64,000 nt of DNA from Lysobacteraceae bacterium (GCA_021604725.1 BQJN01000005.1:614-64613), one strand, 5' to 3'; shown: positions 28,945 to 55,199, numbered from the stretch's first letter. The notes: generated by a model not told the origin, from the sequence alone. Made by a program: numbers and translations.

Positions 28945-29253
28945 GAGGCTATCGCGAAACTACAGCCTCGCGCGATACAGGGATGTATCGCCATTTCGGT
29001 GGGTTTTAACCCTTTGAAATGTAAGGGTTTCGAAAACCACGCTTTCGGAATCCGTGGTGTTGCTAGTCTAGAGGTCGTCCACGATTAGCCATCCGTGGCT
29101 AACGCGGACACGGGTTTCAAGGAGCGCGGTCATTGAAACCCTTCATTTTCAACAAGTTGGAAAATGCTGGCACTTCCGTGTGCCAGGGCGAGCGCGTCAA
29201 AAGACCTATCCGTGGACGCGCTCTAGTCCAGGACGGACTATTGCAACACCCTC
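28945..29253 (+). mobile_element. MITE-like repeat family A, copy 1 (interrupted by a family B element)
   Basis: Imperfect terminal IR GAGGCTATCGCGA / TTGCAACACCCTC; after removing the 160-bp insert it is 149 bp and colinear with 54913-55061. Confidence 0.75.
29069..29225 (-). mobile_element. MITE-like repeat family B, 157 bp, nested in family A
   Basis: Terminal IR TAGAGGTCGTCCACG / CGTGGACGCGCTCTA; GTC on both sides (29066-68, 29226-28); reverse complement matches units at 44661-44974. Confidence 0.8.
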
Positions 29254-29272
29254 TGGGGTTTTTTGCCTTTTC

Positions 29273-29286
29273 TTGATTTCGATCAA
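29273..29286. promoter_or_regulatory. FNR/Anr box
   Basis: Perfect TTGAT-TTCG-ATCAA upstream of ccoN. Confidence 0.9.
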
Positions 29287-29469
29287 GCATTCACTAGGGA
29301 CTAGCCCTCAGTCTTAGCGCTCGCCACCGCGCCGCTTCGTTTCAATATCGATTTGTTTCACCCCTTGGCAGGTGATACAACTACTGCCCATGCCGGCTTG
29401 GCCTGGGCAGGGGGGACCTTCTCCAAAGGCGCGCTGGTTGCACAAACCATAAGCGAGTTATTGAGCCGA

Positions 29470-30888
29470 ATGAACACAATGTACAACGATCGAGTGGTCA
29501 GACAGTTCGTCTATGTGACCATTCTATGGGGCGTCGTGGGTATGGCGATTGGCGTGTTCATCGCCGCACAGCTAGCCTGGCCCGCGCTGAACTTCGACCT
29601 GCCATGGTTGACCTATTCTCGCCTAAGACCGCTGCATACCAACGCGGTAATTTTCGGCTTTGGCGGCAGTGGGCTTTTCGCCACGTCCTACTACATCGTG
29701 CAGCGAACCTGTCATGTCCGGCTATTCAGTGGCAAGCTGGCGGCTTTTACGTTTTGGGGTTGGACGGCGATCATTATCTCGGCAGCCATTACCCTGCCCA
29801 TGGGTATTACTCAGAGCAAGGAGTACGCGGAACTTGAGTGGCCGATCGACCTGCTGATTACTGTCGTTTGGGTCGCCTACGGCATCGTTTTTTTCGGCAC
29901 CATTGTCAAACGCAAAGTCCAGCACATTTATGTTGCCAACTGGTTCTTTGCCGCCTATATCATCACCATCGCGGTGTTGCATATCGTCAATAACCTGGCG
30001 ATTCCGGTTTCGCTAACCAAATCCTATGTCATCTATTCAGGTACCGTCGACGCGATGGTGCAGTGGTGGTATGGCCATAACGCAGTCGGGTTTTTCCTGA
30101 CCGCGGGCTTCCTCGGCATGATGTATTACTTCGTACCGCGCCAGGCTAATCGACCGGTTTATAGTTACCGACTGTCTATCGTCCACTTCTGGGCTCTGAT
30201 CGCCATTTACATGTGGGCAGGCCCTCACCATCTGCACTACACAGCGCTGCCGGATTGGGCGCAATCGTTGGGCATGGTATTTAGTCTGATTCTGTTGGCG
30301 CCGTCCTGGGGTGGCATGATCAACGGCATGATGACCCTGTCCGGGGCCTGGCATAAGTTGCGCACTGATCCTGTGCTCAAGTTCATGATCGTTTCCTTGT
30401 CTTTCTATGGCATGTCGACCTTTGAAGGCCCAATGATGTCGATCAAGACGGTCAATGCGCTATCTCATTACACCGACTGGACTATTGGCCACGTCCACTC
30501 CGGTGCATTGGGTTGGGTCGCCTTCATTACCATCGGTTGCGTGTACTCACTGATTCCGCGGCTTTGGAACGTCAAGGCCATGTACAGCACACGTCTGATT
30601 GACCTGCATTTTTGGGTGTCGACCATCGGTGTGGTGCTGTATATCGCTTCAATGTGGATCGCCGGCGTCATGCAGGGCCTGATGTGGCGCGACACACAAG
30701 ACGATGGAACGCTGACTTATACGTTTATCGAGAGTATCGCTGCAACACAGCCGTATTACATGATCCGCGTGCTAGGTGGATTGCTGTTCCTGGCCGGCAT
30801 GGCGATCATGGTCTACAACGTGGTGCGAACGTTGTCCGGTACCGAGGCCAGTGATACCGCAGTGCTTGAGCCAGCCAAGGGTACGTAA
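29470..30888 (+). CDS. ccoN: cbb3-type cytochrome c oxidase subunit I
   Basis: [41 protein letters not shown] 29470 preferred. Confidence 0.98.
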
Positions 30889-30892
30889 ATCC

Positions 30893-52840: not shown

Positions 52841-52935
52841 GAGCAACTCGAAATCGGCAGTGGCGTGGCTGGCTTCGCCTATCGCTGTCCATATTTGACT
52901 AGTATGCTGCGGTGGTGAACGTAGACTTCATCACC

Positions 52936-54348
52936 ATGGAACAAGCCACTAACAGCAGCAACTTTGCCGCGCTCGATCCCGAGGTGTTGGAGCAGGCGCG
53001 CGTGTCGCGCGATCGTCGTTTCGATGGTCGATTCTACGTCGCTGTACTCACCACGGGCATTTATTGCAGGCCGATTTGTCCGGCGCGCATGCCGCGCCGG
53101 GAAAACGTGCGCCTATTCGCATCAGCCGCCGGCGCAGCCGCTGCCGGCTACCGGCCCTGCCGTCGTTGTCGGCCGGAGTATGCGCCGGGTACCGATGCGC
53201 CGTCGACCGAGTTGGTTGGACGGGCGATGGCGCGCATTGAATCGGGTTGGTTAGACCATGAATCGCCATCCGAGCTGGCGGGCCATTTCGGCATCAGTCG
53301 CCGTCACCTCGACCGACTATTCCAGGAGGTGGTCGGCGCGACTCCAAACGATGTCGCACGAACCAGGCGTTTGCATGCGGCTCGCCGATTATTGGATGTC
53401 GACGGCTTGACCTTGAGTGAAATCGCTCTCGCCGCCGGCTTCCCGTCCTACCGCACCTTTGACCGAGAACTACGCCAGGTCTATGGGCTATCGCCCGGTC
53501 AACTTCGCAAGGACCCACGACCGCAAGCCAGGTCTGCGGTGAACAAGCTGCAGATTCGTCTGACCCAGCCCTATGATTGGGTTCACTGGCTCGGCTTTAT
53601 GCGTAGTCGATCGATCGAAGGCATCGAGCAGGTCGATGGCGACAGTTACCAACGGACCACTGAACAGGGATTTCTAAAGATCAACCGCATCAACATGACC
53701 GTCGTTAGCGTCGAATTTACCAATCATGAAGGTGCGTTGGCCGAAGATTACCAACAGGTGAAAAAGCTGTTGGACGCTGACGCGCCAGTTGCAACTATCG
53801 AAGCGCGACTGGTAGACGCTGGACTGGGTATAGTTGCCAGGCAACCCGGCCTTCGAGTCCCTGGTTGTTGGGACCGGTTTGAGTTGGCCGTTCGCGCCAT
53901 TGTTGGCCAACAGGTGTCCGTGGCTGGTGCTCGCACCGTACTCGGAAGAATCGTTCGTCGTTTTGGCACCGAGCGCAGCGACGGCAAGTACAACTTCCCG
54001 TCACCAGAGCAGCTGGCCCAAGCCGAAACCATCGACCTCAACATGCCGCGTTCACGCGCCAATAGCTTGATTGCACTGAGTCGCCAGGTCGCTGAAGGTG
54101 ACCTGGATCTGAGCGGAGACATCGAAGCTGTCAAGCAACAGTTACTGGACCTGCCTGGTATCGGTCCGTGGACGGTCGGTTACATCGCCATGCGCGCCTT
54201 GGGTGATCCGGATGCCATGCCCCACAACGATCTGGCGCTGGTCAATGCCTGGAAAACCTTAAGCGATCAACCGCTAATGGAAGCGGCGAAGCAATGGCAG
54301 CCCTGGCGTGCCTATGCCGCAATGCACCTTTGGAGTCATCAATCATGA
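52936..54348 (+). CDS. Ada Zn-binding/AraC - AlkA DNA glycosylase fusion
   Basis: TTGIYCRPIC, RPCRRC, AraC HTH, GQQVSV, HhH LPGIGPWT, WQPWRAYA. Confidence 0.93.
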   Translation: MEQATNSSNFAALDPEVLEQARVSRDRRFDGRFYVAVLTTGIYCRPICPARMPRRENVRLFASAAGAAAAGYRPCRRCRPEYAPGTDAPSTELVGRAMARIESGWLDHESPSELAGHFGISRRHLDRLFQEVVGATPNDVARTRRLHAARRLLDVDGLTLSEIALAAGFPSYRTFDRELRQVYGLSPGQLRKDPRPQARSAVNKLQIRLTQPYDWVHWLGFMRSRSIEGIEQVDGDSYQRTTEQGFLKINRINMTVVSVEFTNHEGALAEDYQQVKKLLDADAPVATIEARLVDAGLGIVARQPGLRVPGCWDRFELAVRAIVGQQVSVAGARTVLGRIVRRFGTERSDGKYNFPSPEQLAQAETIDLNMPRSRANSLIALSRQVAEGDLDLSGDIEAVKQQLLDLPGIGPWTVGYIAMRALGDPDAMPHNDLALVNAWKTLSDQPLMEAAKQWQPWRAYAAMHLWSHQS

Positions 54349-54866
54349 ATTATTGTTATCACCTATCACCGCTGGGCCCGTTGCTGTTGGTCGGCGATGC
54401 TTCGGGGTTGTGGAAAATTGGCTTTCCCGAAGGCAAGGGAAAAGTCGAGCCGAGCGCGGATTGGGTTGAGTCAACATCAGGCCTGGAAACGGCACGGCAA
54501 CAACTTGACGAATACTTCGCTGGCGATCGACAGGTCTTTGACTTGAAACTAAAGCCACAAGGTACGAATTTTCAGTTGCAAGTATTGGCTGCGCTGCAGA
54601 CCATCCCGTTTGGCAACACAGCCAGTTACGCCGAAGTGGCCGAAAAAATCGGCCGCCCCAAAGCGGTCCGAGCGGTCGGTGCCGCCAATGGCCGAAATCC
54701 GTTACCCATTGTCATCCCCTGTCATCGCGTGATCGGTGCCAATGGTTCACTCACCGGTTTCGGCGGCGGTATGGCGGCCAAGTCTTATCTGTTAAGTTTG
54801 GAAGGCGCGCTGCCAGCAACGACGAACCGAGATCTATTTGAGCAAGCCAACAATACAGACAGCTGA
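54345..54866 (+). CDS. ogt: Methylated-DNA--protein-cysteine methyltransferase
   Basis: GTNFQ, RAVGAANGRNP, IPCHRV. Confidence 0.95.
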   Translation: MNYCYHLSPLGPLLLVGDASGLWKIGFPEGKGKVEPSADWVESTSGLETARQQLDEYFAGDRQVFDLKLKPQGTNFQLQVLAALQTIPFGNTASYAEVAEKIGRPKAVRAVGAANGRNPLPIVIPCHRVIGANGSLTGFGGGMAAKSYLLSLEGALPATTNRDLFEQANNTDS

Positions 54867-54912
54867 AAGTGGATTGGTCATTGCCATGCAGGTCGAGTCT
54901 TTTGCCGCCTGT

Positions 54913-55061
54913 GAGGCTGTTGCGAAACTGCAGCCGTCTCGATACACGGACGTATCGCAGATTTCGATGGGCCCTAAGCCATTGAAATGTAAGGAACCCG
55001 ATAACCACGCTTCTCGGGTTCCGTGGTGTTGCTAGACCAGGACCGACGATTGCAACACCTT
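54913..55061 (+). mobile_element. MITE-like repeat family A, copy 2 (uninterrupted, ~149 bp)
   Basis: GAGGCTGTTGCGAA...TTGCAACACCT; colinear with 28945-29253. Confidence 0.75.
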
Positions 55062-55199
55062 GCTATGCAGAACAAGCGGCCAAATCGAGGTTTCGATGAA
55101 AACCATGGTCCCTCAATTGATGCCTGCTCGCCGGCAATTCGATTCCGCCTTCCGTGGCAGAATCCTCATCGCGTTGGACGGTCGAGTCAACTACCCACC

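Follow-up and report, generated by a model that had tools for sequence, protein, structure and literature searches.

Dispersed mobile repeats with conserved hairpin loops of the CsrA-consensus type in a marine gammaproteobacterium

The stretch of DNA analysed here (the window, 64,000 nucleotides) comes from a Lysobacteraceae bacterium, a marine gammaproteobacterium, and contains dispersed repeats with hairpins whose stems vary while the loop remains A(N)GGA. This raises the question of whether these loops are, as proposed in the initial annotation, CsrA/RsmA sites that are spread by mobile elements. The hairpins on which this proposal was built are all found at their coordinates (9/9), and at 28975-28986 the sequence is ATACAGGGATGT, in accord with the RUACARGGAUGU consensus given there. 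The elements of the window and their parts are:

7806..7843, plus strand: fragment like a B end with a hairpin (..CCATCCGTGGCT); repeat family D4, 84% identity to 29063-29100
14051..14136, plus strand: partial family A copy; nhmmer A model 8-95, 31.9 bits, and hairpin census
28945..29071, plus strand: left and central part of a family A element; nhmmer A model 1-128, 129.5 bits; CM R1 28972-29087, 24.6 bits
29069..29225, minus strand: full-length family B element inside the A copy; nhmmer B model 1-155, 159.9 bits; CM R1 98.3 bits
29223..29253, plus strand: right end of the split A element; hairpin TAGTCC-AGGAC-GGACTA at 29224-29240; right TIR ..TTGCAACACCCTC
44553..44658, plus strand: B element, first array unit, 5'-truncated; nhmmer B model 51-155; CM R1 42 bits
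44661..44814, plus strand: B element, second array unit; nhmmer 151.5 bits; CM R1 94.5 bits
44819..44971, plus strand: B element, third array unit; nhmmer 159.2 bits; CM R1 101.7 bits
54913..55060, plus strand: uninterrupted family A element; nhmmer 148.8 bits; fold -59.1 kcal/mol, z -5.03
55141..55164, minus strand: lone 9-bp hairpin with ACGGAA loop; hairpin census; fold -14.7 kcal/mol, z -4.1

The copy at 28945-29253 has to be corrected to an A element whose last hairpin is split by a B insertion, as seen in the alignment of 41 full A copies, where the 40 others are intact at that point. The A copy starts with the left TIR GAGGCT.., followed by the hairpin GCGATAC-AGGGAT-GTATCGC (28972-28991) and the central hairpins. 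In the nested B copy the minus strand carries the ANGGAN hairpins, namely 29167-29186 (ACGGAA) and 29084-29103 (ACGGAT); the copy is flanked by a duplicated GTC within CTAGTC..GTCCAGG. A copies elsewhere in the genome that are without the insertion have GCTAGTCCAGGAC at this site, and in the BLAST matches with other copies the query positions 294-324 adjoin 15-142. The partial A copy at 14051, with the hairpin GCGATGC-ATGGAC-GTATTGC at 14075-14094, and the B-end fragment at 7806 are both outside the range covered by the initial annotation.

The repeat search of the window identifies a tandem array with a period of 158 nt (44554-45027) and, in inverted orientation, a copy at 29069-29171. The first B unit of the array starts 70 nt past the gyrB stop; the terminator that had been placed between gyrB and the array is not recovered, the simple scan giving no terminator-like site there. 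The second unit has the hairpins CCGGTCC-ACGGAT-GGGCCGG (44700-44719) and GTTGGCC-ACGGAT-GGCTAAT (44782-44801), and its predicted RNA fold is -44.5 kcal/mol (z -3.75) for the plus strand and -33.5 kcal/mol (z -1.59) for the other strand. The third unit, with hairpins at 44858-44877 (ACGGAT) and 44940-44959 (ATGGAT), adjoins the 3' end of a convergent HAD-hydrolase-like gene (Pfam; 44972-45520, minus strand). The uninterrupted A element, with the hairpin CGATAC-ACGGAC-GTATCG at 54940-54957, is positioned 47 nt past the stop of a methylguanine-methyltransferase-like gene (Pfam), and the lone hairpin at 55141-55164 is in sense orientation to the minus-strand gene 55200-57863, whose stop lies 36 nt upstream of it.

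The repeats are dispersed and are more numerous than first noted. In the assembly scanned genome-wide (G000; 210 contigs, 89.6% complete), nhmmer finds 69 A, 146 B and 204 C matches at E<1e-5, covering about 1% of the assembly, so that three or more families together account for over 400 copies, next to two tandem arrays, referred to as D arrays. The repeats of this superfamily are dispersed, non-coding and structured, with a small size of about 110-160 nt, and each A, B or C unit has two A(N)GGA loop motifs on one strand. In the B core, a hairpin with ANGGAN loop comes first, followed by a second hairpin, by a third one whose loop is AACCRCG, and by a further ANGGAN hairpin. The two repeat families distinguished in the initial annotation do exist, but they are not separate, as A and B are related through a common core. 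Fifty-four of the 420 contig ends of the assembly fall at an element copy.

The B elements (156 bp) have the ends TAGAG..CTCTA, with the TIRs TAGAGCGCGTCCAC.. and ..GTGGACGACCTCTA, and they are flanked as TA-NN-[B]-NN-TA, where the NN (or GTC) is directly repeated in most of 79 full copies, the exact length of the target duplication being within 2-6 nt. The A elements (about 150 bp) end in GAGGCTGTYGCGAAAC and its imperfect inverse GAGGGTGTTGCAATAG; a count by eye gives duplications of 4-7 nt for about 15 of the 41 copies, sited in a CCTTCTCCC/GGGAGAAGG palindrome. A close strain is without the nested A/B locus: the contigs of runs X2, X3 and X4 skip 28938-29258, with 28937 joined to 29259 and 22 other letters between. 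Clearly, A and B are short non-coding elements with TIRs, target-site duplications and both filled and empty sites, and these properties, together with the mutual insertion and the close-strain difference, show that they move as MITEs, in agreement with the MITE-like character initially assigned to them. The scan of the fragmented assembly for end motifs, aimed at an autonomous IS with matching ends, gave only noise outside the known copies.

The constancy of the loop over varying stems is above background, both across the repeat families and across species. Loops of the ANGGA(N) type are found in 0.29% of genic hairpins, in 1.65% of intergenic hairpins outside A/B and in 16.2% of those inside A/B. 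Hairpin 1 of family C has 22 distinct arms around the A-N-GGA-N loop, and 98.2% of its positions are in Watson-Crick pairs, compared with 61.9% (maximum 66.3%) in 500 shuffles; the entropies of its loop positions are about 0/1.4/0/0/0/1.2 bits, next to highly variable stem positions. In B, the loops vary only at the two N positions. Altogether 504 of the 538 loops examined are intact, and the loops with their closing pair fit the CANGGANG core. The GGA strand folds better than its complement (alifold -24.5 versus -7.7). Among rare stem variants G-T outnumbers A-C by only 62 to 44 (p=0.098), with sense and antisense copies being alike.

The B core is homologous to a unit of ~110 nt. Of 151 genomes sampled from the order, 41 contain this unit according to the covariance model CM R1, usually in multiple copies. 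Alignment A1 (16 sequences from nine genomes) has 13 invariant columns, 11 of which make up loop 1 (CA.GGA.G) and loop 2 (A.GGA.G). Compensatory changes are seen in 23 of 27 pairs, and 97.2% of the cells are paired, versus 71.4% after shuffling (0/500) and 32-42% for slid partners. All stems of the ~110-nt unit covary, and the bases fixed in both of its loops are C-A-x-G-G-A-x-G. G-U cells exceed A-C cells (18 versus 2, as read by the author from the pair-type tables), in favour of the GGA strand being the one that folds. Rfam gives no match at gathering score for the window, the D loci or the units of seven other loci, the best Csr/Rsm match being RsmV (17.2 bits, with a gathering score of 100).

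The presence of csrA, on which the initial annotation also depended, is confirmed: the assembly encodes a canonical CsrA (PF02599, 91.3 bits, C19:43891-44046), being a 68-aa ORF that begins MLILTRRVGETLMIGDEV... Of ten element-rich genomes checked, eight have csrA, and G008 and G018 show none; for G018 (99% complete), with 10 CM hits, there is no csrA match even at E<=1. Among the 40 genomes scored (G001-G040), the unit occurs in 10 of the 35 with csrA and in 2 of the 5 without, which is no link to csrA presence. The two D arrays are one-stranded and about 450-520 nt long, with 21 versus 5 and 17 versus 8 GGA on their strands, each consisting of seven hairpins plus linker GGAs, and the B HMM is collinear with a D unit (positions 34-144, E 4.6e-8). 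CsrB, RsmZ and RsmY have no match above cut-off in the assembly, so no other sponge is evident. Classical Csr/Rsm sponge RNAs are discrete transcripts from their own promoter and depend on GacA/UvrY. A simple consensus scan finds no sigma-70-like promoter within the elements or the D array or ahead of them, and a simple scan with a GacA-box consensus finds no such site near the D arrays.

The anticipated strand bias relative to genes is absent. With gene calls from a home-made, crude caller (3709 genes), the first element past a gene 3' end is sense in 106 cases and antisense in 107, and the sense/antisense counts in co-directional regions are 11/8 for A, 18/26 for B and 20/24 for C. Loops are intact in 70 of 77 sense and 93 of 98 antisense copies (p=0.37). 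The hairpins outside A/B/C are sense to the upstream gene in 21 cases versus 7, which counts in favour of the CsrA reading. The lack of orientation bias, sense loops that are not better kept, the lack of a promoter in the scans and the two element-bearing genomes in which csrA is not found speak against an adaptive RNA role.

At the level of sequence, the spread of CsrA-consensus hairpins is thus borne out, and the superfamily is a mobile one with conserved loops of this type. It is plausible that the elements bind CsrA, the loops being kept as RNA because they would be high-affinity sites for the CsrA/RsmA dimer. If so, each element would, given the canonical CsrA of the host, deliver two CsrA sites at its landing place, at a median of 52 nt past a stop codon and with about half of the copies sense; being present in hundreds, the mobile repeats may scatter CsrA sites through the genome and, as we infer, act as sponges or stability tags. 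The D arrays, with 17-21 GGA on one strand, would be dedicated CsrB-like sponges, and the MITEs mobilised copies of a D-type unit that add distributed titration and a load of 3'-UTR tagging; the constraint would act on proliferating source lineages, with none visible on single insertions. As a whole, this is the best explanation, with a probability of about one half. A more far-reaching version is put forward tentatively: an order-wide family of CsrA-titrating modules could have turned mobile when the two-site unit was captured between transposon ends. That the tandem arrays are the missing CsrB-like sponges of the lineage, with hundreds of CsrA sites brought into 3' UTRs, is an equally tentative suggestion. 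If this mobile-module reading is true, transposition would allow evolution to alter both how large the CsrA sink is and which genes belong to the CsrA regulon.

Against the CsrA reading it has to be weighed that the loops could be recognized in DNA. The hairpins would then form in single-stranded or cruciform DNA, with the A-N-GGA-N loop as binding or nicking site of the copying enzyme (a transposase, of the HUH type or another) or as a site for some DNA-binding protein of the host, and the match with CsrA sites would be coincidental. The elements are demonstrably mobile, their random gene orientation and orientation-independent loop integrity are as expected if propagation alone selected, the G-T bias fits single-stranded DNA equally well, and G018 has copies and no csrA that could be found. 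Of 127 family C unit starts, 21 are fused at or inside ANGGAN loops (between AT and GG or just after the loop) and lack the remainder of the unit that is broken there, a hint that the loop is used at the level of DNA, and a left-end variant of B has the same GTCCACGGAT string as hairpin 1. However, TIRs accompanied by flank duplications suggest a DDE enzyme binding at the element ends and not at internal loops, and neither a Y1/RAYT transposase (PF01797) in the 89.6% complete assembly nor, in the noisy scan, an autonomous element with matching ends is seen. The same loop is found in A, B, C and D, which have different ends, and across the families of the order, so that a conserved host factor fits better than a lineage-specific transposase, and its degeneracy, in which N2 and N6 vary freely and A, G, G, A and the closing C-G do not change, coincides exactly with that of the CsrA/RsmE consensus. 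DNA-level recognition is considered unlikely, although it retains an appreciable chance.

It is improbable that the role is purely structural, as with REP/ERIC, so that the elements would stabilise 3' ends, terminate transcription or insulate convergent genes from each other without CsrA, and the loop would be retained because it aids folding or protects against RNase. In favour of such a role, the folds have strong stability, convergent pairs are enriched (64/168 element-bearing regions versus 422/2195 intergenic regions genome-wide) and divergent pairs depleted (19/168 versus 499/2195), the median stop codon-to-element distance is 52 nt, and T-runs follow some of the lone ANGGAN hairpins. 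A structural role does not, however, account for loops that keep A, G, G, A and leave the N positions free across nine genomes; the hexaloop sequence is unnecessary for stability, and the simple scan finds no terminator-like sites in the window elements. Loop conservation alone cannot discriminate the strands, and about half of the copies would be transcribed in the other direction if read-through occurs, so that N-UCC-N-U loops might pair as anti-SD regulators with GGA-rich Shine-Dalgarno regions. This is made very improbable by the better folding of the GGA strand, by the 18 to 2 ratio of G-U to A-C across species, by the T-runs after hairpins outside A/B/C (7 cases on the GGA strand versus 1) and by the 21 versus 5 GGA of the D arrays. 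That the loops seem conserved simply since the copies are young is hardly credible: the B copies are very alike, with many columns having a minor-allele frequency under 5%, but the stem neighbours and loop N positions of family C are saturated with change, as is the comparison between genomes of different families, and the shuffle and slide controls do not reproduce the pairing.

Among known repeats, the elements resemble Correia/NEMIS of Neisseria and RUP in their size (100-160 bp), their TIRs, their short duplications at TA-containing sites and their hundreds of intergenic copies near gene ends, including nested and tandem insertions; these and other MITEs are co-transcribed with neighbouring genes. 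The difference is that the interior here is more than two fused transposon ends, being a conserved unit of four hairpins in which the stems covary and the loops are invariant, and which is also present in elements lacking those ends and in other genomes of the order. REP/BIME with RAYT and ERIC/IRU of Enterobacterales are likewise palindromic units in mosaic clusters and arrays, which prefer 3' ends and convergent gene pairs and persist across genera, whereas the present units are longer and conserve the loop, not the stem. A head tetranucleotide of the GTAG type is a REP feature; none is seen in the element alignments, and PF01797 (RAYT) has 0 matches in the assembly, with controls matched in 6 of 14 genomes.

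The multiple hairpins with A(N)GGA loops on one strand are shared with CsrB/CsrC, RsmX/Y/Z and RsmV/W, and the D arrays equal CsrB-type RNAs in size and motif density (17-21 GGA in about 450-520 nt). Different from these RNAs are the lack of homology to any Rfam Csr/Rsm model, the lack of a GacA-type box or sigma-70-like promoter for the D arrays in simple scans, and the dispersal in tens to hundreds of copies, of which A and B are bounded by transposon ends. RsmU of Xanthomonas campestris is described as a single locus, conserved only in Xanthomonas and not a repeat; according to its authors, homologues of the classical sponges were not found in Xanthomonas genomes (PMC7694677). It is an RsmA sequester processed from an mRNA 3' UTR, with 3-4 GGA motifs (PMC7694677), and, belonging to the same broad lineage, it serves as a precedent for the CsrA reading.

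Three dispersed repeat families, A, B and C, were counted in the source genome assembly (G000; 4.68 Mb in 210 contigs, 56% GC, 89.6% complete) with family-specific nhmmer profiles (E<1e-5), giving 69, 146 and 204 matches, respectively, which together cover 45,115 bp or ~1% of the assembly. The true numbers are higher, because 54 of the 420 contig ends lie at a copy. Family-specific models were used for these counts since A and B share a core, through which an iteratively built profile of A had come to include B. The B element is 156 bp long, with the ends TAGAGCGCGTCCAC.. and ..GTGGACGACCTCTA, and most of its 79 full copies are flanked as TA-NN-[B]-NN-TA, with NN repeated; tandem B units have a common junction, and this generates the period of 158 nt, as in the array at window 44554-45027. 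The A element is ~150 bp long and has imperfect inverted ends. An inverted repeat copy is found at window 29069-29171, and all hairpins listed in the initial annotation are present where it had placed them.

Family C, as well as smaller families sharing the building block, was revealed by a census of hairpins having stems of at least five pairs and loops of 5-6 nucleotides. In this census, loops of the ANGGA(N) type are present in 0.29% of the genic hairpins, 1.65% of the intergenic hairpins outside A/B and 16.2% of the hairpins inside A/B, which agrees with the earlier proposal that the loop stands above background; the commonest intergenic hexaloops of the genome are ATGGAT and its complement ATCCAT. 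The ~130-nt units of family C start with GGGTGAGCC and often occur in arrays (C numbers denote contigs, and the window is G000:C5:614-64613):

G000 C38:39480-39900, family C units
G000 C16:54397-55200, family C units
G000 C5:65050-65420, family C units, directly beyond the window end

A small further family, at G000:C19:39400-39910 and C4:52820-53020, has the hairpin GCGTATC-ANGGAT-GATACGC, in which N is any of the four bases, together with AATTCGT-(C/A)AGGA-ACGAATT hairpins. The recurrent motif GGAGGCTAG-AGGGA-CTAGCC-GACCC(A/G)C.., seen at window 4497-4513 (minus strand) and at G000 C29:31830, C132:1236 and C182:549, may belong to yet another small family of GGA-loop repeats.

The loops of these repeats are constrained in sequence, and the stems are constrained to pairing alone. 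The arms of the first ANGGAN hairpin of family C (loop motif A-N-GGA-N) come in 22 versions across 145 distinct copies, and the Watson-Crick pairing of this hairpin is 98.2%, compared with 61.9% when the arms are shuffled (maximum 66.3% in 500 shuffles). Its loop has A in 144 of the 145 copies, followed by any base or none, GGA and any base, with entropies of ~0/1.4/0/0/0/1.2 bits. Subfamilies of B differ by compensated stem swaps, for example of five pairs of hairpin 3, and in hairpin 1 of CCGGTCC/GGACCGG versus CCGGCAC/GTGCCAG, one loop remaining ACGGAT or ACGGAA and the other ATGGAT or ACGGAT. Of the 538 loops examined in total, 504 are intact. When the closing C-G pair is included, the motif is C-A-N-GGA-N-G, the RsmE/CsrA core consensus; the SELEX consensus quoted in the initial annotation is indeed fitted by window 28975-28986.

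The same pattern extends across the order. Positions 34-144 of the 156 positions of the B profile are collinear (E 4.6e-8) with the repeat unit of two tandem arrays, the D arrays:

G000:C41:~21120-21640, plus strand, D array (locus L140:1110-1640), 21 versus 5 GGA on the two strands
G000:C14:~44330-44760, minus strand, D array (locus L141), 17 versus 8 GGA on the two strands

These arrays are paralogous (73% identical). Each has seven C-ANGGAN-G hairpins and GCGGATA linkers. A gene of the same orientation is found upstream of each array (in C41 it encodes an EamA-type transporter), and both arrays converge with a tRNA-Leu. A similar ~110-nt unit is found by BLAST in 34 of 401 genomes and, by a covariance model of the B-core-like unit (R1), in 41 of 151 genomes of the order, usually in multiple copies, with at least 25 R1 matches in both G019 and G117, 22 in G146, 17 in G098, 16 in G082 and 11 in the closed genome G065. 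The relatives compared are genomes of the same order, none of the same family or genus. The B type itself, searched by BLAST with the B unit and by the B pattern, is present in G000 and G083 only of the 401 genomes, and a 400-kb sample of G083 has no general ANGGAN enrichment.

Invariance among 16 units from nine genomes is confined to columns C7, A8, G10, G11, A12 and G14 together with A86, G88, G89, A90 and G92, which belong to the two loops, and, outside the loops, to C57 and T98. Compensatory change is observed in 23 of the 27 pairs of the cross-genome unit alignment, whose cells are paired in 97.2%, compared with 71.4% after shuffling (0/500) and 32-42% when the partners are slid; in our own reading of the pair tables there are 18 G-U cells versus 2 A-C cells. 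The pattern is the same in 20 further copies from G019 and G065, where (A)(N)GGA is kept in 38 of 40 loops by our own count. Of these 20 copies (L171, L174-L192), 8 have a 3' end (..GCGGATNAAC/TA) that coincides exactly with the end of a convergent stop-to-stop ORF, which suggests insertion at, or adjoining, stop codons. In G019, the unit follows a semi-conserved stretch (..GGATGACGG..ACGAAGCCC).

The elements are mobile, or at least dynamic, as deduced from nesting and from strain differences, in agreement with the MITE-like mobility proposed before. In the A element at window 28945-29253, the last hairpin (GCTAGTCC-AGGAC-GGACTA) is disrupted by a B element, which is flanked by a duplicated GTC, and the remaining aligned A copies show no interruption at this point. 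In contigs from three DNA sequencing runs (X2, X3 and X4), 22 other letters, including a remnant of the A right end, replace window 28938-29258. X2, which has 238 differences across ~15.3 kb around this locus, also has 52 additional letters at 44553-44556, the start of the gyrB array. The runs carrying the locus are marine or biofilm metagenomes, and this comparison is informative only for the parts that their contigs cover. Approximately 15 of 41 A copies, judged by eye, lie within a second palindrome, CCTTCTCCC-N(4-7)...N(4-7)-GGGAGAAGG, in which N(4-7) is directly duplicated (for example G000:C101:10627-10784 and C66:7807-7965), which suggests that A targets a loop in another repeat, as B targets A. 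Element-bearing regions are convergent in 64 of 168 cases (422 of 2195 genome-wide) and divergent in 19 of 168 (499 of 2195), a placement typical for tolerated insertions. A cognate transposase was not found in G000, and a RAYT/IS200 origin was rejected, as no Y1 transposase was found there; a search for an autonomous partner by the A and B end motifs gave mostly noise.

GyrB is encoded at window 42093-44483 (Pfam) and is at most ~71% identical to that of Lysobacterales/Xanthomonadales-type gammaproteobacterial MAGs. Upstream of gyrB, window 38608-38688 (minus strand) has a weak Rfam match to AsdA (33.1 bits versus a gathering score of 52, E 0.0027), the antisense RNA of dnaA mRNA; the gene at this position is putatively dnaA.

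These repeats thus form a mobile, order-wide superfamily of structured elements, and we infer that the loop constraint reflects predicted binding of CsrA to RNA. The genome has, as the earlier proposal requires, one csrA gene (91 bits), whose product of 68 residues begins with the canonical N-terminal sequence, and csrA is present in 36 of the 41 genomes of the relatives search, G000 counted. Folding favours the GGA strand, at -44.5 kcal/mol (z -3.75) versus -33.5 (z -1.59) on the complement for a B core and at -59.1 versus -54.3 for A. For ANGGAN hairpins outside the three big families (A/B/C), a T-run follows on the GGA strand in 7 cases versus 1 on the other strand, and orientation relative to the upstream gene is sense in 21 versus 7 (p 0.0125); these cases are partly non-independent. 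Solitary ANGGAN hairpins directly followed by a T-run (G000 C2:72271, C75:23581, C67:7242, C12:57651 and C163:599) look, by sequence, like intrinsic terminators with a CsrA-type loop.

The main rival explanation places the constraint at the DNA level, the loop being recognized by a propagating enzyme or a host protein. In 21 of 127 family C units, the start is joined at AT|GG within an ANGGAN loop or immediately behind such a loop, with the remainder of the interrupted unit missing, which would fit this use of the loop. The orientation data point away from selection of the individual copies as RNA, and the strand bias sought for sponges or stability tags is absent: with 3709 genes called by a crude procedure of our own, the element that comes first behind the 3' end of a gene lies in sense in 106 cases and in antisense in 107. 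Sense/antisense counts in co-directional regions are 11/8 for A, 18/26 for B and 20/24 for C, and loops are intact in 70 of 77 sense and 93 of 98 antisense copies. Orientation is uninformative for the 20 G019 and G065 copies, of which, relative to stop-to-stop ORFs, 2 in co-directional contexts are sense and 2 antisense. Stem variants over all copies are G-T in 208 and A-C in 103 cases (summed), and this excess is not used as evidence of RNA selection in situ because it shrinks to 62 versus 44 in rare variants (p 0.098), alike in both orientations. Of the genomes G001-G040, those with csrA have the unit in 10 of 35 cases and those without it in 2 of 5. The 99%-complete draft G018, with 10 covariance-model matches of the unit and no csrA even at E<=1, is a possible counter-example to CsrA dependence; the unit-bearing G008 has no csrA match either, and its sister genomes have the gene.

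Individual insertions give no sign of selection that depends on orientation, and for this reason the constraint, which we ascribe to CsrA, most likely acts on source lineages. The D arrays would then act as CsrB-like sponges, of which A and B would be mobilized units. The arrays are candidate sponge genes, and neither they nor the cross-genome units match an Rfam family. Scans of the elements and the D array found no promoter-like sites, nor was a GacA-like box found near the D arrays, which speaks against selection for an RNA role. Rfam searches at the gathering score and at E<=1 gave nothing relevant, with no match to CsrB, RsmZ or RsmY above cut-off in G000; RsmZ/RsmY-like matches of ~19 bits were rejected as ordinary terminator-like hairpins.

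The nearest precedent is RsmU of Xanthomonas, a 3'-UTR-derived sequester of RsmA, and classical sponges are reported absent in Xanthomonas (PMC7694677). A literature search of main articles brought up no publication that relates REP or MITE repeats to CsrA. Even without CsrA, free stems combined with an order-wide fixed loop identify a conserved trans-acting factor, and the covariance model R1 can be used to annotate the elements. If the loops are CsrA sites, the elements would be a lead to the still undiscovered RNAs that antagonize Csr/Rsm in a large gammaproteobacterial order. They would also be, to our knowledge, the first bacterial example of a mobile element that spreads the binding sites of a global post-transcriptional regulator, in parallel to the transposon-borne transcription-factor sites of eukaryotes.
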